64,000 bases of DNA from an uncultured Gammaproteobacteria bacterium (GCA_963824045.1 CAWGNW010000009.1:4709-68708); one strand, 5' to 3'. Numbered from the stretch's first letter, positions 7,127 to 57,000 are shown. Notes: a model not told the origin generated them from the letters alone. Made by a program: numbers and translations.

Positions 7127-7189
7127 TATTTCCTGATCTGCCGGGGTTTGTGAGGGGAATATATTGTCCAGTGGGAAACCTTCCTCCGG

Positions 7190-7520
7190 CGCGATTGTTC
7201 GAGAACCGCATCGCGGTCAGCACCCAAAGAACGGGCATAAAGAGACCGCTCCTGCCCTGCTATTGTCACCTGTAGGAGTACCCCAATGGGCACAAGCACC
7301 CCAATGGGCGTAAACGCCGCCCTCCGGCGCGAATGTTCGAGAATCGCATCGCGGTCAGCACCCAAAGAACGGGCATAAAGAGACCGCTCCTACCCTACTA
7401 TTGCCACCTGTAGGAGCACCCTGAAGGGCATAAATACCCCAATGGGCACAAGCACCCCAATGGGCACAAGCACCCCAATGGGCACAAACACCGCCCTTCG
7501 GCGCGATCATTTCCGCAACC
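7190..7520. repeat. Composite intergenic repeat: two ~96-bp units, each followed by tandem copies of an 18-bp motif CACCCCAATGGGCACAAG, then a partial third unit
   Basis: The unit CCTCCGGCGCGA..TCGCGGTCAGCACCCAAAGAACGGGCATAAAGAGACCGCTCCT..CTGTAGGAG occurs twice directly. The 18-mers are direct tandem copies. An inverted copy of the same family lies at 56641-56786. Confidence 0.85.
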
Positions 7521-7616
7521 CGCTGCATGCAGAAGACCGCTGCTGAATTTGTGCTCTGACGCGGTCAGCCGTTTCGGTTAAACTGCATCCCTGTTTTCAT
7601 CCGTAGAGTCGGCCGT

Positions 7617-48748: not shown

Positions 48749-50149
48749 ATGATACCGGTCATCGCCCTGGTGGGCCGCCCCAATGTCGGCAAGTCAACGC
48801 TGTTCAATCGACTCACCCGCACCCGAGACGCACTGGTTGCCGACGTCCCGGGGCTGACGCGCGATCGCAAGTATGGCGACGGCAGGGTGGGCGACCGGCC
48901 GTTTATCGTGATCGATACCGGCGGCTTGAGCGGCGCCACCGATGACCTGGACGGCATGATGGCGCAACAGGCCTGGCAGGCAATCAACGAGGCCGACCAG
49001 GTGTTTTTCCTGGTCGACGGGCGTGCCGGACTGACAGCAAGCGACGAGATGGTAGCGATGGCACTGCGCCGTACCGGGAAACCGGCCGTGCTGGTGGTCA
49101 ACAAGACCGACGGTGTAGATCCCGATACTGCGATGGCGGAATTCCACACCCTCGGACTCGGTGAACCGGTGCCGATCGCTGCGGTGCACGGACGCGGCGT
49201 CACGGCACTGATTACCCACGCCCTGGAAAGCCTGCCGGACACAGCAGCTGTTGACACGGATGACGAAACCGCCAGCGGCCGTATTCGTGTGGCTGTCGCC
49301 GGGCGTCCCAATGTCGGCAAGTCCACCCTGATCAACCGCATGCTGGGCGAGGAACGGGTGCTGGCCTATGACCAGCCGGGCACCACCCGGGACAGCATCT
49401 TCATCCCCTTCGAACGTGACGGGGTCGACTACACACTGATCGATACGGCCGGCGTGCGGCGTCGTGCACGCGTGCACGAGGCGATCGAGAAGTTCAGTGT
49501 CATCAAGACGCTGCAGGCCATCGATGCGGCACACGTGGTGATCCTGGTGCTGGACGCGCACCAGGGTATTGGCGATCAGGATGCCAGCCTGGCCGGGTAT
49601 ATTGCGGAAAAGGGGCGTGCTCTGGTGGTCGCGGTGAACAAGTGGGACGGCCTGCAGTCGCACGAGCGCAGCGATCTGGTTGCGCAACTGGAGCGCAAGC
49701 TGCCGTTTCTGGGCTTTGCGACCACCTGTTTTATTTCGGCCCGGCACGGTACCGGCGTCGGTGACCTGTTTCCGGAAATCACCCGGGCCTATGCTGCTGC
49801 CACGCGGGAGCTGTCGACACCCGAACTGACCACGATTCTCGAGCAGGCGGTCCAGGAACACCAGCCGCCGCTGGTCCGGGGGCGGCGCATCAAGTTGCGT
49901 TACGCCCACCAGGGCGGACGGAATCCGCCGCTGATCGTAATACACGGTAACCAGACCGAACACCTGCCAGACAGCTACCGGCGCTACCTGGTCAATGTCT
50001 TCCGTGAGGCATTGCGACTGTCAGGCACTCCGATCCGACTCGAGTTCCGGACCGGCAGCAACCCCTTCCAGGGTCGCAGGAACAAGCTAACCCCGCGCCA
50101 GGAAAAGCGCCGCACGCGACTGGTGCGGCACGTCAGGAAAGCACACTAG
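48749..50149 (+). CDS. der: Ribosome biogenesis GTPase Der (EngA)
   Basis: Two GTPase domains ([12 protein letters not shown] and [12 protein letters not shown]) plus a KH-like C-terminus. Confidence 0.9.
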
Positions 50150-50631
50150 GACTTCCCCCGTCTGACCGCATAGCAGCTTATATATACCCGAAGATGTCAT
50201 GAGGAGTATCAGGGCAGTTGCAATTTGCGCAACAAACACCTGCCCGAACAGGCATGATGATTTCATAGTGATCTACCCGAAAACCCTGCCCGTTTCTGGA
50301 TTTACAGCCAGAAATTTGTTGTTGATTCTTGACTGTTATCCCAACCATATCCCAACAGCATATCCACCATCAGGCTCTGATAGATTCAGGATGACACATA
50401 TACCGCGTTATCAGTTCGCAGATGTTCCAAACGGGTCGTTACCCGTCCTTCAATGTAATCCTGTACCAGAAAATCCTCCAGGGCCGGGTTCGGGCAGCTT
50501 CTTGTCGTTCTTCAGATTCGGTCGCGTTTCTGAAAAGCAGCAACCCCGGTCTTTTGGCAGCTGGAGAAGTTGAAAAAGAAAACATTGGGATGATCCACAA
50601 TGAGGGCTTGATCAACTGGTCCTTGATACAA

Positions 50632-50922
50632 TTAACTGGACACGAGCTTATCAACTTCCTGCTCTGCCTCGACCCAGTCCTGCAACTCGCCCCCTGGTTC
50701 GAACCCCCTGTTTTCTGCCTTATGGTAGGCAGTGATGGCAATCATCTTCCAGCGTTCCTCTGGCGAAATGTTTATCGACGATATATCCGGCATGGAGGTG
50801 TTTGCGGGGTTCTTTGCGACCTTTCTCGTGGTGGTTTTCTTTACGTTGACTGCCTTTTTCTCGGGCACTGCTTCCTTGGCAGCTTTCTTCGTGGAAGATT
50901 TCTTTTTGATAGGGGGATTCAT
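50632..50922 (-). CDS. DUF2934 domain protein with Lys-rich N-terminus
   Basis: C-terminal EERWKMIAITAYHKAENRGFEPGGELQDWVEAEQEV matches the DUF2934 consensus. AGGAGA lies 6 nt upstream of the ATG. Confidence 0.7.
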   Translation of the reverse strand: MNPPIKKKSSTKKAAKEAVPEKKAVNVKKTTTRKVAKNPANTSMPDISSINISPEERWKMIAITAYHKAENRGFEPGGELQDWVEAEQEVDKLVSS

Positions 50923-51767
50923 GACACTCTCCTGTCAGTTGATGGTAGACACTCTGGTTTGTTGAAAACAGGTGGAGACATTGAGGGTTCCTGTACTCGT
51001 ATGTCGCCAAGGTTACTTTTGTAAAAAAAACGCATTATCCCACCAACAACCCGGGATGTCTTGCCTTGCTCGGGTATGCAGTTCCGGTGACTCAACCCGG
51101 GAAGAGTATGTTCCCGTGTGTGCACCGGGTCAGTATGTCGTGAGTGCCGGGAAACGATCGTGTGTACCCTGTCTTTGCGCAAGGGCGCATGCTCCAGAAT
51201 CACAATAACTTGCCCCTTTCCCGGGTCCCCGGCCTGCTTCCGGCGGGGCACTGCGATCATCCTTTTCGAAAGACTGTTGATCCCGTTCCGCCATGTTTCC
51301 ATTCCTCCCTGTTTGCGTTCCTTGTTCAGGGCTTCGCGCCAGCCGACATCCCGGGCGAGTCGAATCGGCACAGTATACTCAACCCTGTCAGCACCTTGCC
51401 AGGTGTCGAGTGTTTTATGCCCCTTTATAGACCGTGTACAGGAAACATAGCCGACGCATCTCGAGACAATCCAGCCGATAAACGGGGTGGATTCAGCGGT
51501 TATATCCTGTTCAGTCCAGGGGCGATATTCCCCGGGTTCCCGTGAAGGCCAGGTAAGTACCGGCAGACCTTCGGTTTCTGCCCACTATCTGGTAATACCG
51601 GCAATCAGCCTGCAGGAGTTGGCGGGGGTCGGTGGATGGCAGTCGGACGAAATGTCTTGCGGTATCCCGTTCTTGCACAGGAGCAGCTGGCATGCGCGGC
51701 GGCTCGTATTGAGATGCCGCCGGGGACCGTCGCGAATCACACTGCGACTGCGCTGCGCCAGAAAAGC

Positions 51768-51800
51768 AAAAGGCCCGCACCAGGATGCAGGCTTTTTACT
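51768..51800. terminator. Bidirectional rho-independent terminator downstream of the Gly/Tyr-rich protein gene
   Basis: AAAAGGCCCGCAccaggaTGCAGGCTTTTT: a stem flanked by an A-run and a T-run. Confidence 0.45.
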
Positions 51801-51910
51801 CTATGGTACGCCCGGTGTATCCGTGGCTGACTGGTCGGTCAGCTTTTGCCCCCGGCATTACTGCACAGGCATATTTCCGGACCTGTTTACCCGGTACATT
51901 CTGTTCGGTC

Positions 51911-52297
51911 CTATTCAGGCAGCCTTGGTGGAGGGGCGGCTTGCTCTGCGCCACTTGTCGGGTTTACAACAATGGTCCTCTGCTGCCCGTAACCACCATA
52001 ACCACCATAACCGGGATAGCCACCATAACCACCATAACCACCATAACCGGGATAGCCACCATAACCACCATAACCGGGATAGCCACCATAACCATAGGGT
52101 CCACCTCCGTAGCCGTAGGGTCCATAGCCTCCGTAATCACGGTCATAATACCTGTGATGATCATTGTCATTGTTAAACCACTTGTCCGGCTTCATCATGT
52201 TGCCCATATCGAAGGCCTGCGCGACATTCGCCGCAGCGAGAATTGTCATGCCAAGGGCAGTTCCTGTTGCTACTGAAATGATTTTTATCCGATTCAT
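51911..52297 (-). CDS. Secreted glycine/tyrosine/proline-rich low-complexity protein
   Basis: Signal peptide MNRIKIISVATGTALGMTILAAANVAQA, then DRDYGGYGPYGYGGGPYGYGGYPGYGGYGGYPGYGG... GAGGT lies 8 nt upstream of the ATG. The DNA underneath is a near-perfect tandem repeat (ccaccataacc-type units). Confidence 0.55.
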   Translation of the reverse strand: MNRIKIISVATGTALGMTILAAANVAQAFDMGNMMKPDKWFNNDNDHHRYYDRDYGGYGPYGYGGGPYGYGGYPGYGGYGGYPGYGGYGGYGGYPGYGGYGGYGQQRTIVVNPTSGAEQAAPPPRLPE

Positions 52298-52646
52298 TAC
52301 GGTTACCTCATGGTTGCCATTATTTAACTCGAACCCGGGTTCAAGCAGTTTAACCAGTAATCAGGTGGGCCAGGTGACTGTGCATATCTTCAAATGAGCT
52401 GACTTCCACATATACCCGCTTATAAAACAGACAGCCATACTGCATGATTTACAAACATATTGCATGGTAATCTTGTGCAACGCTGCCTTGGTGGCAGGTG
52501 CCATGGAAAATCCCTGCCGGAATAATATTTGCCCTGCGTCTGGGGACAGTGTAATCGAAATCCCTTGTCGGGTAATTCCTGAAGGGCTATAAGTCAGTTT
52601 GCGCCCCTGGTTTATCGTATTAAACAAAGCCGGTTCGGGGATAATA

Positions 52647-53387
52647 ATGAAATATCTGTATATTTTTATGATCCTGAGCCTGCCTTTGATCTGTCGGGCA
52701 GATACCTATGAATCCACACTGCTGGTACAAACCGGTGAAATGCGAGAGGGTGACCTTATCGTGCGTACCGTCACCGATCTGGAAAGCAGCAGGATCTGTC
52801 TGGCATTTTATATTCGAACCACTGGCACGAGCCCCGTGATGAACTGTTACGATGCTGTTTCCGGATATGCTTCCAATATCAGTCAGGTCGGGAACTTCAA
52901 GGAAGAACAGCTGATTGTCCGTAAAATAAAGGATACCCTGAACGACATATCCTGCCTGGTGGCTTACGTGGGTACGCCTGGAACCTCTCCATCCATAGAC
53001 TGTTACAAAAGCAGGAAGTCCGCCACTGATGAGCTGGTGCGAGACGGGCACCTGCGGGAGGGCGATCTCGATATTTACCGGGTCGTGGACAAGGATAGTA
53101 CAAAGACCTGTCTGGTTGCCTATGTCTCTACCAGTGGTACCGCACCTTCACTGAAATGCTATAACAGCAATTCGGGAGGCAAGGGCGGACTGGTTCAGAG
53201 CAACTCTTTACGCAAGGGTGACCTCATTGTGCGCAAGATCGTCGATCACGCCAACCGGGAAGAATGTCTGATTTCCTATGTCAGTACAGAGGGCACTTCT
53301 CCGGGTATCAACTGTTTCGATGCTGTTTCCACTCCCCTGCGCAGTGTTCCTCCAACAGTATCCATCCCGGTTAGCCCGAAGCGTTGA
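52647..53387 (+). CDS. Secreted protein built from four tandem ~52-aa repeats (GDLIVR-x-V-D-x5-CL-x-YV-x-T-x-GTSP-x3-C[YF]), no known family
   Basis: Signal peptide MKYLYIFMILSLPLICRA. Four repeats each carry two conserved Cys. The gene lies in a lower-GC island. Confidence 0.6.
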   Translation: MKYLYIFMILSLPLICRADTYESTLLVQTGEMREGDLIVRTVTDLESSRICLAFYIRTTGTSPVMNCYDAVSGYASNISQVGNFKEEQLIVRKIKDTLNDISCLVAYVGTPGTSPSIDCYKSRKSATDELVRDGHLREGDLDIYRVVDKDSTKTCLVAYVSTSGTAPSLKCYNSNSGGKGGLVQSNSLRKGDLIVRKIVDHANREECLISYVSTEGTSPGINCFDAVSTPLRSVPPTVSIPVSPKR

Positions 53388-53985
53388 GTTCAACAGCCTG
53401 AATTGACGGCTGCACTTGATCCGGTTCGCCACGTTCTGCCACCACAACCCTGTCTTGCCCTGGAATGTCGACTTGCAGTTGCGAGATTGCGCTAAGGAGG
53501 AGGGTATTTATATCCCGGCAAATGTGGCGATGGCGGCAGGCTGGCGATCAGCGTTTCCCATGCACGTGCCGGCAGCAGGTATAACACGGCAGGCTTGTCA
53601 ATGTCCGTGCCGAACACCGAATCCCGTACAGGAAGACACGTGTCGGGGTCAGGGAGTGCAGAACTTCTTTCCACCAAACCTCACGATGAACAGTAAAGGC
53701 AGCGGAAACAAGATAAAAATTGTTCCTCTTTGGAAACCGATTCCATCCAGGAAGGCTTCCCTGTGACAGTTGCCTGCTACAAGAACAGGACACTCCCCTT
53801 GATCAGGCATGTACTGTATTTAATTTTTAAAAAACAAGGCAATACATTGACTGCCCTGATCCCCCGGTGTTCGGTGAACAAGCATATAGAGCTGAAATGG
53901 CCGGGCAGCGGCGCTGTTTGCCAGGCGCAGTCGGGTGTAATGGAGCGGCGGAGAGGTTCGACGCTCCGGGGAGCGTACTGCGCAA

Positions 53986-54011
53986 TGAAAAACGGCGACC
54001 CGGAGGTCGCC
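53986..54011 (-). terminator. Orphan rho-independent terminator (minus strand)
   Basis: Perfect 7-bp stem GGCGACC-cgga-GGTCGCC. Read on the minus strand it is followed by TTTTTC. No convincing CDS lies upstream of it on that strand. Confidence 0.4.
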
Positions 54012-54260
54012 GCGTAATGAATCCCCACCGTGAAAAAAGCACAATGATGTGCAAAAAAGCAGTGCGGACGAACTACAGGATAGCAGCTGGCAAATTGCAG
54101 TAATATTGTGGAGACTACGTAGCGTGAGGAATAAACTCCGGAAATCGCCTGACTGAACACATTGGCAGTAACCTGTGGATGGTATTCCGGCCATGCGTAA
54201 TAAATTCGCGGCTGCCAGTAATGCTGCGTACCTGCACCGATACCTTCAGGAAAATACCTC

Positions 54261-56504
54261 ATGTTGAGAAACCTCCTGTACCGCCTCCGTGCCGGCCGGT
54301 TGCCGGCCGGCTTGCTGGCTGCACTTGCAGCGTGCACCAGCCACGCTGCCGACTATGTCGGCGGCGAGGTTTGCCGCGGTTGTCATGCGGCGGAGTACAG
54401 CGCCTGGCAGGGCTCCCCTCACGACCTGGCCATGCAGACGGCAAGCGAGGCGACCGTACTGGGAGATTTCGACAATGCCAGTGTGACCCACTTCGGCGTG
54501 ACGACCTCCTTTTACAGGAAGGATGGCCGGTACATGGTTCGTACCGAGGGTCCGGACGGCAAGCTCCATGACTACGAAATCAGCTACACCTTCGGTGCCG
54601 TGCCGCTGCAGCAGTACCTGATCAAGTTCCCCGGCGGCCGCATGCAGGCGCTGAGCCTGGCCTGGGACAGCCGGCCGGAAGCGCAGGGCGGGCAGCGCTG
54701 GTTTCATCTCTATCCCGACGAGCAGATCAGCCACGATGATGAGTTGCACTGGACCCGACTCCGGCAGAACTGGAACAGCATGTGCGCGGAATGCCATGCA
54801 ACACACCTGGAGAAAAATTATGACCCGGTCGCCAGGACATTCGCGACCACGTGGTCGGAGATCGACGTGTCCTGTGAGGCATGCCATGGACCCGGCTCGG
54901 ACCACGTGGCGTGGGCAGGGCGCAAACCGGGTTGGGAAAAACTTGATGCCGGCAAGGGGCTGGCAATCGCGCTCGACGAACGCAAGGGTATCCAGTGGAA
55001 GATCGACGCGGCAAGTGGCAAGCCCGTTCGCAGTGAAACCCGCAGCAGTGTTCGGGAAATCGGGATGTGCGCCCGCTGTCATGCACGGCGCAGCCCGATA
55101 AGCACTGGCTATGTACATGGCGAGCCGTTGCTGGACCACTATCTCCCGCAGCTGCTGGAAGCCGGCATGTATTACCCCGATGGCCAGATTGAAGACGAGG
55201 TCTACGTCTACGGGTCATTTGTCCAGAGCCGGATGTACCATGCCGGTGTCACGTGCAGTGATTGCCACGAGCCGCACAGCTCGGCATTGCGGGTCGCCGG
55301 CAACGGCGTCTGCCTGCAGTGCCACCAGGCGGAAAAATATGATCAGCCCGGCCACCATTTCCACAAGCAGGAATCAGCGGGAGCGAGCTGTGCCGAGTGC
55401 CATATGCCGCCAAGGACCTACATGGTGGTCGACCCGCGCCATGACCACAGCATGCGCATTCCGCGCCCGGATCTGTCACTGAAACTCGGCACGCCCAACG
55501 CGTGCAACAATTGCCATAAGGACAAGGATGCCGGGTGGGCTGACACGCAGGTCAGGAACTGGTATGGCGCTGCACCGCAGGGTTTCCAGAGATTCGCACA
55601 GGGACTGTACGATGCACGGCATGATGCCGCGTCTGCCGGCACCACCCTGGCCGCGCTGATTCGGGACACGGAAACCCCTGATATTGCACGTGCGACTGCG
55701 CTTGCCGCGATAGGCCCGTACCTGGGTGCCGCCACGATTGACGTACTGCCGCTGGCGTTGTCGGATCCCGATCCGGGCGTGCGCGCGGCGGCTGTGGGCC
55801 TGCTGGAGCAAACGCCGTTGAACGTCCGGGTGCGTCTCGCCTTCCCGATGCTCGATGACCCTGTGCGCGCCGTGCGTATAGAAACCGCACGGGTGCTGGC
55901 GTCGATTCCGGCCGGCGAGCTGTCGACGCAGCAGCAGGCATCACTGGATGCGGCGCTGCAGGAATATGTCACGGCCCAGCAGGCCAGCGCGGAGCGGCCC
56001 GAGGCACAGACCAATCTCGGCAATCTGTATGCGATGCAGGGTAAGGAGGAGCAGGCGGTTGCCGCATATAACACGGCGATTGATCTTGATCCCGCCTATG
56101 TCCCGGCCTATGTGAACCTGGCTGACCTTTACCGCGCCGTGGGAAAGGAGGTGGACTCCGACAAGGTGCTGCGCCGGGCGGCCGTGATCGTGCCGGAAAA
56201 TGCGGCCATACACTATGCGCTGGGTTTGTCGCTGGTGCGGCAGCAGCGGACTGGTGAGGGTCTTGAGGAACTCCGCGAGGCTGTAACCATGAGCCCGGAG
56301 GATGCGCACTATGTTTATGTTTACGCGGTGGCGCTGAATTCAACCGGGAAGCCGGAACAGGCAATCCTGGTGTTGCAGGGCGCGTACAACCAGCACCCGA
56401 ATGACCGTGACATTCTGGGCGCCCTGGCAGCGTTCCACCGTGACATGGGGAATGAGGATGCGGCACGTGTCTATGCCGGGAAGTTGCGTGCGCTGGCGCC
56501 CTAG
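54261..56504 (+). CDS. Octahaem c-type cytochrome (cytochrome c554/multihaem family) fused to C-terminal TPR/HEAT-like repeats
   Basis: Signal peptide plus eight CXXCH motifs (CRGCH, CAECH, CEACH, CARCH, CSDCH, CLQCH, CAECH, CNNCH). TPR repeats occupy the last ~250 aa. Confidence 0.85.
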   Translation: MLRNLLYRLRAGRLPAGLLAALAACTSHAADYVGGEVCRGCHAAEYSAWQGSPHDLAMQTASEATVLGDFDNASVTHFGVTTSFYRKDGRYMVRTEGPDGKLHDYEISYTFGAVPLQQYLIKFPGGRMQALSLAWDSRPEAQGGQRWFHLYPDEQISHDDELHWTRLRQNWNSMCAECHATHLEKNYDPVARTFATTWSEIDVSCEACHGPGSDHVAWAGRKPGWEKLDAGKGLAIALDERKGIQWKIDAASGKPVRSETRSSVREIGMCARCHARRSPISTGYVHGEPLLDHYLPQLLEAGMYYPDGQIEDEVYVYGSFVQSRMYHAGVTCSDCHEPHSSALRVAGNGVCLQCHQAEKYDQPGHHFHKQESAGASCAECHMPPRTYMVVDPRHDHSMRIPRPDLSLKLGTPNACNNCHKDKDAGWADTQVRNWYGAAPQGFQRFAQGLYDARHDAASAGTTLAALIRDTETPDIARATALAAIGPYLGAATIDVLPLALSDPDPGVRAAAVGLLEQTPLNVRVRLAFPMLDDPVRAVRIETARVLASIPAGELSTQQQASLDAALQEYVTAQQASAERPEAQTNLGNLYAMQGKEEQAVAAYNTAIDLDPAYVPAYVNLADLYRAVGKEVDSDKVLRRAAVIVPENAAIHYALGLSLVRQQRTGEGLEELREAVTMSPEDAHYVYVYAVALNSTGKPEQAILVLQGAYNQHPNDRDILGALAAFHRDMGNEDAARVYAGKLRALAP

Positions 56505-56640: not shown

Positions 56641-56786
56641 CTGTAGGAGCGGCCTCTTTATGCCCGTTTTCCGGGTACTGGCCGCGATCGCGCCGAAGGA
56701 CGGCGCCTGTGCCCACTGGGGTGCTTGTGCCCACTGGGGTGCTTGTGCCCACTGGGGTGCTTGTGCCTACCGGGGTACTCCTACAG
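56641..56786. repeat. Inverted copy of the 7.2-7.5 kb repeat unit with three or four 18-bp tandem motifs, bounded by CTGTAGGAG / CTCCTACAG inverted ends
   Basis: The reverse complement matches TCCGGCGCGA..CGGGCATAAAGAG.CCGCTCCTAC, and CACCCCAGTGGGCACAAG x3 matches CACCCCAATGGGCACAAG with one difference. Confidence 0.8.
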
Positions 56787-57000
56787 TACAGGTCCAGAAT
56801 CGCACTACCGGTGAATTCCGGAATCACTACACCGGGATGAATCTCGTCCTGTCAATCAGCTGTCGAAACCGGATTACACCCCGGGTTTATGCAACTACCG
56901 GGTTGATTCTCTGCTTAACCAGTCAACATCCGGTATTTTCAAGTTGAAAAAATTCCAGCGACCGACGCTCACTGGTTTCTGAAAGGCAGGCGCAGCCGGG

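Follow-up and report, generated by a model that had tools for sequence, protein, structure and literature searches.

We found that the core of a lower-GC islet in the genome of an uncultured Gammaproteobacterium is best explained as a mobile two-gene module for coating periplasmic sulfur globules with protein, an explanation that, taken as a whole, we hold to be about 60% probable. The module (51603..53460 of the window, i.e. of the whole 64,000-nucleotide stretch of DNA that was analysed) consists of an sgpC-like gene, a shared control region and a four-repeat gene. The minus-strand gene would encode a sulfur globule protein of the SgpC (CV3) type, and the plus-strand gene a compact all-beta periplasmic protein that would work together with it.

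The islet and its two exported proteins

The islet (50150..54260) lies between der (48749-50149, plus strand) and a multihaem cytochrome/TPR gene that starts at 54261. Its GC content is 51.6% (0.516, determined for 50160-54250) versus 61.9% (0.619) in the remainder of the window, and in 400-nt windows it ranges from 0.46 to 0.55 across 50000-54400 and from 0.60 to 0.67 on either side. This bears out the GC drop between der and the cytochrome gene that had been noted in an earlier, sequence-only reading of the same DNA. The other structural observations of that reading were recovered as well: two divergent genes for signal-peptide proteins (one made of G-Y-P repeats and one of four ~52-aa repeats with two Cys each), an AT-richer region shared between them, and no integrase or tRNA at the edges (we found no tRNA across the whole window and no integrase or transposase signal in the islet ORFs tested). 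The DUF2934 gene that had been counted to the islet is indeed there (50632..50922, minus strand, 96 aa; Pfam PF11154, E=6e-14, 51.8 bits versus a cut-off of 22, model positions 1-36 of 37), with an AGGAG Shine-Dalgarno sequence ahead of its ATG, but it is an islet gene outside the conserved module: it adjoins the two-gene pair only in contigs of the same strain and is absent from that place in other genomes.

The remainder of the islet yielded little. An ORF of 150 aa (50919..51371, minus strand), called as a gene by JGI in locus L008, is of doubtful reality; it has no Pfam or PHROG match and is conserved in no other locus. The 873 bp at 53388..54260 contain no credible ORF, no ORF matching a family and no Rfam match, and carry three terminator-like hairpins on the minus strand (54013-53992, 53858-53835 and 54052-54039); past ~53460 this stretch is conserved in the same strain only. 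A PHROG search of the islet ORFs returned nothing meaningful, and the Rfam search gave just two sub-threshold Thr-leader matches, located on a terminator hairpin and taken as chance. A remnant sigma-factor gene at 51636-51830, suspected from the reading frame, was rejected as it had no Pfam support, and the terminator region of the Gly/Tyr gene accounts better for the DNA conservation with locus L010 at this position. Two edge repeats, D11 (50165/54075, 14 nt, 86%) and I5, were similarly rejected as att sites, being short two-copy matches of a quality estimated to occur dozens of times by chance in 4.8 kb.

The Gly/Tyr/Pro-rich, SgpC (CV3)-like secreted protein (128 aa) is encoded at 51911..52297 on the minus strand, behind a GAGGT Shine-Dalgarno sequence. 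As read from the sequence, its N-terminus (MNRIKIISVATGTALGMTILAAANVAQA/FDMG) resembles a signal peptide, with a charged n-region, a hydrophobic core and an A-x-A site. The mature protein (~100 aa, 10.8 kDa) contains 30% Gly, 19% Tyr and 11% Pro, and AF2 predicted no fold except for the signal helix (residues 2-34; pLDDT 50.5). The protein belongs to a family of 779 members. Its Sec signal peptide is followed by a conserved motif near the N-terminus (F-D/N-M-G-N-M-M-x-P-x-x-W-F), by a linker that is acidic and rich in Tyr, and by a Gly-Tyr-Pro repeat of variable length that is predicted to be intrinsically disordered; the C-terminal end carries the conserved motifs TIVVNP and PPPRLPE. Its GYGGYPGYGGYG units are encoded by a 9-bp/36-bp tandem DNA repeat (51990..52094, minus strand; period 36 with 2.4 copies and 100% match, period 9 with 11.7 copies according to TRF), the copy number of which varies between close relatives. 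That the ORF is an artefact of this DNA repeat was rejected, because the non-repetitive N- and C-termini, the Shine-Dalgarno sequence and the signal peptide are conserved in hundreds of homologues. A terminator-like hairpin (51773..51792, minus strand; GCCTGCATCCTGGTGCGGGC then CTTTTGCTTT in the consensus scan) is found ~120 nt downstream of the gene, within the stretch that is conserved with L010.

The second protein (246 aa; 52647..53387, plus strand) is a secreted four-repeat, eight-Cys protein of an uncharacterised family. A signal-peptide-like N-terminus (MKYLYIFMILSLPLICRA/DTYE) is followed by four repeats of ~52 aa (aa 23-231; 52713..53339, plus strand), namely aa 23-75 (52713-52871), aa 76-128 (52872-53030), aa 129-180 (53031-53186) and aa 181-231 (53187-53339). 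The repeats are 37-49% identical in the alignment, with L, D, C, L, Y, T, G, T, P and C invariant, including two Cys in each repeat. Conservation of the arrangement in four repeats and of all eight Cys in 536 homologues shows that the repeats are not a matter of chance, and over 44 diverse sequences the eight Cys are invariant or nearly so. With a mean column identity of 64-72% the protein is, at the sequence level, far more conserved than the coat proteins. It matched nothing in Pfam, NCBIfam or PDB, had no relative below ~46% identity, and no distant homologues turned up when 1.84 billion representatives were scanned in full with HMMER. Literature searches with the peptide motifs of either protein found no paper, and the searchable literature yielded no description of the four-repeat gene. 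A lipoprotein reading was rejected: the signal-peptide Cys is not conserved (homologues P0115 and P0121 lack it) and the preceding residue does not fit a lipobox. AlphaFold confidently predicted 16 beta-strands arranged as four blade-like units, with four strands per repeat and the Cys residues on strands three and four of every unit. One Cys-Cys pair probably pins each blade-like repeat, and stabilisation of the protein by disulfides is plausible.

Linkage, control region and origin of the module

We collected 80 species-level genome loci through the repeat protein. The Gly/Tyr gene was located divergently upstream in 53 of these, in tandem downstream in 9 and in both positions in 8, and a relaxed scan added 2 further loci; the remaining loci were truncated (4) or truly without a Gly/Tyr gene (4). 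The two genes are thus adjacent in 72 of the 76 informative loci. No other conserved neighbours of the pair were found and the flanking genes change between loci. Adjacency combined with unrelated flanks supports a functional pair, as had been suggested from the sequence alone. In the complete genome of a Lamellibrachia symbiont a gene named CV3 is found 129 bp downstream of a four-repeat Cys gene, and a second Gly/Tyr gene lies divergently upstream. A multihaem cytochrome/TPR gene also adjoins the pair in two loci (L004 and L005), but a conserved link was rejected as coincidence, since these cytochromes are not homologous to that of the window. When 80 metagenome loci encoding relatives of the window's cytochrome were inspected, none (0/80) had der, the pair or DUF2934 in the vicinity, and therefore the insertion could not be delimited by synteny.

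The shared divergent control region (52298..52646), estimated at 300 bp in the sequence-only reading, measures 349 bp, has a GC content of 45.8% and aligns with five relatives. It contains two direct repeats with a 20-bp period (52429..52462, plus strand), AGACAGCCATACTG and TTACAAACATATTG, for which the family consensus is (A/T)TACAACCATATTG. Both copies, which precede the repeat gene by ~220 and ~200 nt, are present in 10 other loci; the -200 copy alone was recorded for L010, L015 and the window (the window within the 3 mismatches allowed). These repeats form a candidate binding site for a regulator. The two genes may be co-regulated, either through this divergent region with its conserved repeat pair or, in other clades, as an operon.

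Comparison by blastn to the nearest relatives gave matches of 83% over 51603-53460 (L010) and of 76% over 51900-53409 (L001 and L011), and no stretch outside 51603-53460 was alignable to them. The islet as a whole stretch is common only to L008 and L009, which are contigs of the same strain. The GC content of the module lies 11 points under that of its host, and in 38 other genomes gene GC tracks host GC (within 3.5 points on average); the deviation in the window was the largest among the compared loci, and the genomes of the nearest relatives have a GC content of 53-56%. As the GC content has not ameliorated, recent horizontal acquisition is plausible, in line with the differing flanks and with the earlier reading, and the source may have been a lower-GC relative.

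Kinship to sulfur globule proteins and role of the partner

The loci that carry a taxon name derive mostly from sulfur-oxidising Gammaproteobacteria, and include Chromatiaceae, Ectothiorhodospiraceae, Thiogranum, Sedimenticola, Ca. Thiosymbion, a tubeworm endosymbiont, Ca. Venteria and Thiotrichales. These named carrier taxa are sulfur oxidisers. The profile of the Gly/Tyr family scored 84.7 bits against P0273 (QYZ66959.1, from the Lamellibrachia symbiont), which carries the name 'sulfur globule protein CV3' at NCBI; composition-preserving shuffles averaged -13.8 and did not exceed 19.1. BLASTP aligned the non-repetitive N-termini of P0273 and the window protein. The UniRef name of a member from a Seepiophila symbiont begins 'Sulfur globul', presumably 'sulfur globule protein', and most members are annotated 'hypothetical'. 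The claim that neither protein falls into a known family thus holds for Pfam and NCBIfam, where no model matches either of them, but not for the Gly/Tyr protein when NCBI and UniRef names are considered: by sequence it belongs to a family that NCBI in places annotates as sulfur globule protein CV3. The link to SgpC rests on these database names of relatives, themselves predictions, and not on Alvin_1325 itself. Published Sgps have a Sec signal peptide, a size of 8-13 kDa, Gly/aromatic-rich repeats and regularly spaced Pro (PMC10386293, PMC7356093, PMC10892978), and the Gly/Tyr protein likewise is a small Gly/aromatic repeat protein with spaced Pro and a Sec-type signal peptide. Given the distance between 84.7 bits and the shuffle maximum of ~19, the Gly/Tyr protein is most likely a periplasmic sulfur-globule envelope protein and not a component of an extracellular matrix; the known relatives are coats of periplasmic sulfur globules (PMC10386293).

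A matrix is what the sequence-only reading had envisaged, i.e. a matrix or adhesive system in which a Gly/Tyr protein open to Tyr cross-linking and a repeat protein stabilised by disulfides are exported to the surface or a biofilm, comparable to plant glycine-rich wall proteins or to a curli-like fibre with its accessory protein. Such a system would fit the signal peptides on both proteins, the conservation of the pair and the glycine-rich structural composition (a few homologues have a precomputed match to PF07172, GRP, and there is a weak GRP match with E=0.022, below threshold). We nevertheless consider it very unlikely: the named carriers are sulfur oxidisers and not biofilm formers at large, no gene for a secretion system, sortase, oxidase or peroxidase accompanies the pair, and the relatives are named after globules that are periplasmic (PMC10386293). 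Of the original proposal, a structural role of the Gly/Tyr protein is likely, while Tyr cross-linking found no support.

It could also be argued that the pair is unrelated to sulfur storage and represents a lineage-restricted low-complexity protein of the periplasm or outer membrane together with its binding partner, with another role in the envelope (e.g. protection from stress, or binding of metals or minerals via the acidic stretch). The 'sulfur globule' names would in that case be a composition-driven annotation carry-over. The many hypothetical annotations, the lack of a curated model, the purely compositional likeness to a Beggiatoa Sgp (see below) and the absence of sulfur-oxidation genes (sox, dsr and sqr) from the window are consistent with this. 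It is made unlikely by the likeness to the CV3-named protein, which extends to non-repetitive motifs and scores far over the shuffled controls, by taxonomic labels that consistently point to sulfur oxidisers (among them symbionts with known sulfur storage), and by size, signal peptide and repeat style, which fit the published Sgps (PMC10386293).

In the explanation that we prefer, which draws on the analogy with SgpA-D of Allochromatium vinosum, periplasmic deposits of zero-valent sulfur would be the surface on which the Gly/Tyr protein assembles. The mechanism that we favour for the repeat protein is that of a multivalent binder or assembly factor, which would physically interact with the conserved termini of its partner or with the repeated GY(G)P units and thereby organise or nucleate the envelope. 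The Gly/Tyr proteins that adjoin the repeat gene nearly always end in P-x-(L/V/M/I/A)-P-(E/Q). Within the same system, the partner might instead handle thiols or polysulfide, its eight Cys carrying or anchoring sulfur chains (Cys-S-Sn), so that it nucleates globules or passes sulfur to or from them while the Gly/Tyr protein coats the product. The near invariance of the eight Cys over the 44 diverse sequences, their placement on the last two strands of each unit and the linkage to sgpC-like genes are in line with such a role. Yet in exported proteins, two Cys with fixed spacing on neighbouring strands of each repeat usually point to structural disulfides. The partner shows no likeness to SoxY, DsrE, TusA or rhodanese folds, no conserved redox partner gene is found near the pair, and we regard thiol handling as improbable. 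Taken further, the repeat protein might be a core part of globule biogenesis, a thiol nucleator or anchor of polysulfane ends that recruits the SgpC-type coat protein via the conserved C-terminal P-x-L-P-E tail of the latter. This idea is decidedly speculative, and if true, the thiol-bearing repeat protein would be the 'organic residue' of the organyl sulfanes reported in globules of purple sulfur bacteria, and globule initiation would be a defined protein-templated step and not spontaneous deposition.

The sulfur globules that occur in sediment bacteria, in purple sulfur bacteria and in symbionts of animals from vents and seeps represent a major and visible intermediate of the sulfur cycle, and the known coat proteins are four, from one model organism. 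The repeat gene, travelling with sgpC-like genes in ~70 species-level genomes, is a concrete candidate for the missing assembly or anchoring factor. In addition, the folded partner provides a practical marker, as its homologues are much easier to detect than those of the low-complexity Sgp proteins.

Comparison with known systems

The repeat protein can be compared with beta-propeller blades (WD40, BamB and YncE), with which ~100-120 residues align at high rmsd (Foldseek TM-score <=0.24). Beta-propellers have six to eight units versus four here, there is no sequence similarity, and the paired Cys in every unit are a trait of the repeat protein that propellers do not have. Membership of the beta-propellers was rejected, as neither a closed ring of four-stranded blades nor global similarity was found. 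The Gly/Tyr protein is alike in composition and predicted disorder to plant glycine-rich proteins (PF07172), keratin heads and FUS-like domains, a likeness of composition only, with scores below threshold and no shared ancestry; the comparison with keratin and plant-wall proteins has been made before in the Sgp literature (PMC10386293).

Proteins of the SgpA/SgpB type, including ALG67575.1 of Beggiatoa leptomitoformis (identified by proteomics; Beggiatoa sequences were taken from the supplement of PMC7356093), are of the same class, with a signal peptide and a similar composition (mature ~11-13 kDa; 25-27% Gly, 15-16% Tyr and 15-17% Pro). The Gly/Tyr profile scored -16 bits against the Beggiatoa Sgp, inside the shuffle range, the likeness being compositional only, and the Beggiatoa termini (AWWGG at the N-terminus and PEAK at the C-terminus) are unlike those of the window protein. 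Paralogues of an 'AWWGG...KAK' type were observed near the module in some loci (L016 and L017).

SgpA-C are described in the literature as extremely hydrophobic, whereas the GRAVY of the mature window protein is -1.12. The Beggiatoa Sgps are GRAVY-negative too (-0.5 to -0.7), and the index may miss the sense in which the literature uses the term. In A. vinosum, where SgpC is reported to control globule expansion (PMC10386293), sgpC is flanked on one side by a gene for a thiol peroxidase (PMC4213376) instead of a four-repeat Cys gene. The sgp genes of this organism are described as unlinked, and together these observations indicate that the four-repeat partner may be absent from A. vinosum. SgpC (CV3, Alvin_1325) and the window protein, which carries TIVVNP and a C-terminal PPPRLPE and was compared with SgpC by description only, are both small and exported, with a Sec signal peptide, Gly/aromatic repeats and spaced prolines, and in the Lamellibrachia symbiont a CV3-named protein that matches the family profile of the window protein sits in the same gene module.

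A conserved gene pair in a low-GC islet

The conserved unit of this locus is a pair of genes, one encoding a Gly/Tyr/Pro-rich protein of 128 aa (51911-52297, minus strand) and the other, divergent from it, a protein of 246 aa made of four repeats (52647-53387, plus strand). Both products have a signal-peptide-like N-terminus, and the genes are separated by 349 bp of 45.8% GC. When one genome per species was scanned, 100 genomes were found to encode the four-repeat protein, and 80 loci were retrieved. A gene for a secreted Gly/Tyr(/Trp)/Pro-rich protein was located beside the repeat gene divergently upstream in 53 loci, directly downstream in the same orientation in 9 and at both positions in 8; a relaxed scan added two loci (L080 and L083), and such a neighbour was absent in four (L065, L073, L078 and L088). 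With four truncated loci excluded, the pair was adjacent in 72 of the 76 informative loci. All-against-all clustering of the flanking ORFs revealed no other conserved neighbours: the families it grouped were generic and restricted to a minority of loci. The functional pairing proposed in the sequence-only reading is thereby supported. By blastn, the nearest relatives aligned only with window positions 51603-53460 (83% for L010 and 76% for L001/L011), and the flanks towards der and towards the cytochrome gene, like the DUF2934 gene, recur only in two short same-strain contigs. One MAG (MFD09779.bin.2.146, contigs L010 and L014) carries the complete module twice; its partners share 89% and 81% identity with that of the window, consistent with duplication or repeated acquisition.

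In the clade of the symbionts, Sedimenticola and Venteria, the genes lie on one strand at a distance of 7-291 nt and are therefore probably co-transcribed. In the clade to which the window belongs (partners ~68% or more identical) they share a control region with direct repeats (A/T)TACAACCATATTG at a 20-bp period, a candidate regulator site as judged from sequence. Ten other loci had both copies, which lie ~220 and ~200 nt upstream of the repeat gene; in L010, L015 and the window only the -200 copy was matched (within three mismatches). In the window this copy lies at 52449-52462, and a weaker one, visible only by alignment, at 52429-52442.

The pair is embedded in an islet (50160-54250) of 51.6% GC, compared with 61.9% for the remainder of the window, the values falling from 0.60-0.67 outside to 0.46-0.55 across ~50000-54400. 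It is preceded by hisS-yfgM-bamB-der, the usual gammaproteobacterial run (der ends at 50149), and also holds a DUF2934 gene (50632-50922, minus strand; PF11154, E=6e-14). Pfam and PHROG searches of the islet ORFs yielded no credible gene in the ~1 kb between 50923 and 51910. A 150-aa ORF (50919-51371, minus strand), which shares 4 nt with the start of the DUF2934 gene, is called as a gene by JGI; it has no family match and no homologue among the loci compared, and its coding status is doubtful. The 873 bp at 53388-54260 contain no credible ORF and no Rfam match. Three terminator-like hairpins (54052-54039, 54013-53992 and 53858-53835) are present there on the minus strand, and past ~53460 conservation is limited to the same strain. 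This stretch could represent a small RNA or decayed genes. There is no tRNA in the whole window and no trace of an integrase or transposase in the islet, so the earlier description of the islet (its GC drop, gene content and lack of tRNA or integrase) was accurate.

Origin and surroundings of the module

In 38 loci with long flanks the GC content of the repeat gene tracked that of the host, from 0.44 (Ca. Venteria) to 0.65, lying on average 3.5 and at most 9 points below the flanks. The repeat gene of the window lies 11 points below (0.507 versus 0.619), with a GC3 of 0.56 versus 0.75-0.83 in neighbouring genes, and its closest relatives occur in genomes of 53-56% GC, one of them the MAG with two copies (L010 and L014). 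The GC deficit, these relatives and the unrelated flanks support a recent transfer from a lower-GC relative, in line with the horizontal acquisition suggested before. Relatives of the adjacent cytochrome gene (at most 75% identical) were never adjacent to der, and the bounds of the insertion are not set by synteny.

This cytochrome (54261-56504, 747 aa) carries several CXXCH haem motifs (Cytochrome_C554, c7, paired-CXXCH), after which HEAT and TPR repeats follow. It has 438 relatives of 50-75% identity in a metagenome collection, from sediment and other samples to judge by the contig names. None of the window genes tested (der, bamB, yfgM, hisS, the pair, DUF2934 and the Na/H exchanger) was present in the neighbourhoods of these relatives. 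In L004 (440-6918) the pair is located beside a multihaem cytochrome not homologous to that of the window, an FG-GAP/UnbV_ASPIC protein and a large TPR protein; that multihaem/TPR neighbours of two different families occur may be a coincidence or reflect a shared periplasmic redox context. Further, ~3.7 tandem copies of an 18-bp unit (GGGCACAAACACCCCAAT versus TGTGCCCACTGGGGTGCT, in opposite orientation) were found at 7426-7492 and 56708-56776, both intergenic and 49 kb apart. A 138-bp repeat (7183-7447) adjoins the first array, and the sequence directly downstream of the second (56778-56904) matches L001 2849-2723 at 73%. The arrays may belong to a dispersed intergenic repeat family.

The Gly/Tyr protein and sulfur globule proteins

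The named loci that carry the module belong to Chromatiaceae, Ectothiorhodospiraceae, Thiogranum, Sedimenticola, Ca. Thiosymbion, a Lamellibrachia endosymbiont, Ca. Venteria ishoeyi and Thiotrichales. All of these taxa oxidise sulfur, and sulfur storage is known for several of them. Four labels fit poorly, those of L016 and L017 (Halobacteria archaeon), L056 (Bdellovibrio bacteriovorus) and L049 (Deltaproteobacteria); the first three hold a typical gammaproteobacterial module and L049 is a short contig with the repeat gene only, and these bins are probably mis-assigned or contaminated. Within the window we found no sox, dsr or sqr genes, only rhodanese, glycolate-oxidase-type genes and cytochromes, which leaves a real gap in the argument for sulfur storage.

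Because small exported Gly/aromatic-repeat proteins occur in these taxa, an identity as sulfur globule protein (Sgp) was considered. SgpA, SgpB and SgpC of Allochromatium vinosum are exported envelope proteins of periplasmic sulfur globules, repetitive with prolines at regular spacing and likened to keratins and plant wall proteins, and SgpC is required for globule expansion (PMC10386293; also PMC3368242, PMC10892978, PMC7356093). By exact-sequence look-up, the Gly/Tyr neighbour in the Lamellibrachia symbiont (L060) shares a 90% cluster with QYZ66959.1 (P0273), named 'sulfur globule protein CV3' (i.e. SgpC) at NCBI, and a Seepiophila-symbiont relative has a UniRef name beginning 'Sulfur globul'. 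In the complete symbiont genome CP053680.1 the CV3-named gene lies 129 bp downstream of a four-repeat Cys gene (3140195-3140875), with a second Gly/Tyr gene divergent upstream. The profile of the window family scored 84.7 bits against P0273, and shuffles preserving the signal peptide and composition averaged -13.8 and reached 19.1 at most; the similarity thus reflects homology, not composition. BLASTP aligned the N-termini of the two proteins. The Gly/Tyr gene is a further member of an already known protein class, and the view that its product matches no known family was wrong. By the annotation of its relatives, most of them still named hypothetical, the product would belong to the SgpC family.

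The mature Gly/Tyr protein consists of 30% Gly, 19% Tyr and 11% Pro, and a 9/36-bp tandem DNA repeat makes up part of its gene. Gly/Tyr proteins adjacent to the repeat gene have in common a non-repetitive N-terminus AQAF(D/N)MGNMMNPxxWF, followed by an acidic Asp/Arg/Tyr linker and repeats of varying length. Almost all of them end in P-x-(L/V/M/I/A)-P-(E/Q), and the divergent type also carries STIVV(N/T)P. In the window protein the terminal peptides are FDMGNMMKPDKWF and TIVVNP...PPPRLPE. AlphaFold predicted only the signal helix and otherwise no fold (pLDDT 50.5, pTM 0.17). On the 428-kb contig of L004/L017 the gene (7286-7606) ends out of frame with …VGTVGTVATVGNQAPSL, and the otherwise identical genes of L005 (4695-5063) and L006 end with …YGGYGGQPSTIVVNP…PPPRLPE; the difference is a frameshift within the repeat, which marks either a pseudogene or a fault in the assembly.

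The four-repeat partner and comparison with known systems

The partner consists of four ~52-aa repeats (37-49% mutual identity) with two invariant Cys each. At the 90% cluster level there are 536 homologues; almost all have a length of ~246 aa, none carries a Pfam domain, and those to which a source gives a name are all called hypothetical. Searches of NCBIfam, Pfam and PHROGs gave nothing significant, and when 1.84 billion representatives were scanned exhaustively with HMMER, only 29 clusters were found, all fragments or at least 46% identical, indicating that the protein has no distant relatives. Across sequences labelled Chromatiaceae, Ectothiorhodospiraceae and Thiotrichales column identity averages 64-72%, and each of the eight Cys is fully or almost fully conserved. 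The protein is not mentioned in the Sgp literature examined, nor did a literature search by peptide motif find it; both the partner gene and its close association with sgpC-like genes seem to be undescribed.

In the mechanism that we consider most likely, both products would be exported. The disordered Gly/Tyr/Pro protein would, like other Sgps, form a coat around periplasmic zero-valent sulfur, and the folded, highly conserved partner would act together with it. We favour a role of the latter as a multivalent binder or assembly factor, its four similar units facing the repeated GY(G)P units and the conserved termini of the Gly/Tyr protein. The pattern of the eight cysteines can be read in two ways: in the more novel alternative their thiols would anchor or carry sulfur chains, and on the more conservative view they would form ordinary structural disulfides. 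The earlier interpretation is partly right, in the pairing, in horizontal acquisition and in a structural role, which is likely for the Gly/Tyr protein as a putative globule coat of the Sgp type; an extracellular matrix is probably wrong, since related Sgps coat periplasmic globules (PMC10386293).

A third, longer secreted Gly/Tyr/Pro type was observed near the module in L001/L011 (8830-9348, plus strand), L034 (5435-6010), L083 (6366-7325) and L084 (5662-6222). It shares the N-terminal motif FDMGNMMNPSKW with the Gly/Tyr protein and has a C-terminal coiled-coil-like segment (e.g. AEIRRLKERLRQLE), some members ending with YRPLDRN or RPMDKN, and may be another sulfur-globule protein class.

The module would combine a known sulfur-globule system with an apparently undescribed partner, and is of moderate interest, mainly for the sulfur-storage field. 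Compared with the Beggiatoa Sgp that has proteomic support (sequences from the supplement of PMC7356093), on which the profile of the window family scored inside the shuffle range, the Gly/Tyr protein of the window shares the class but not detectably the family; at some loci 'AWWGG...KAK' paralogues of the Beggiatoa type, like the longer coiled-coil type, are nevertheless located close to the module.
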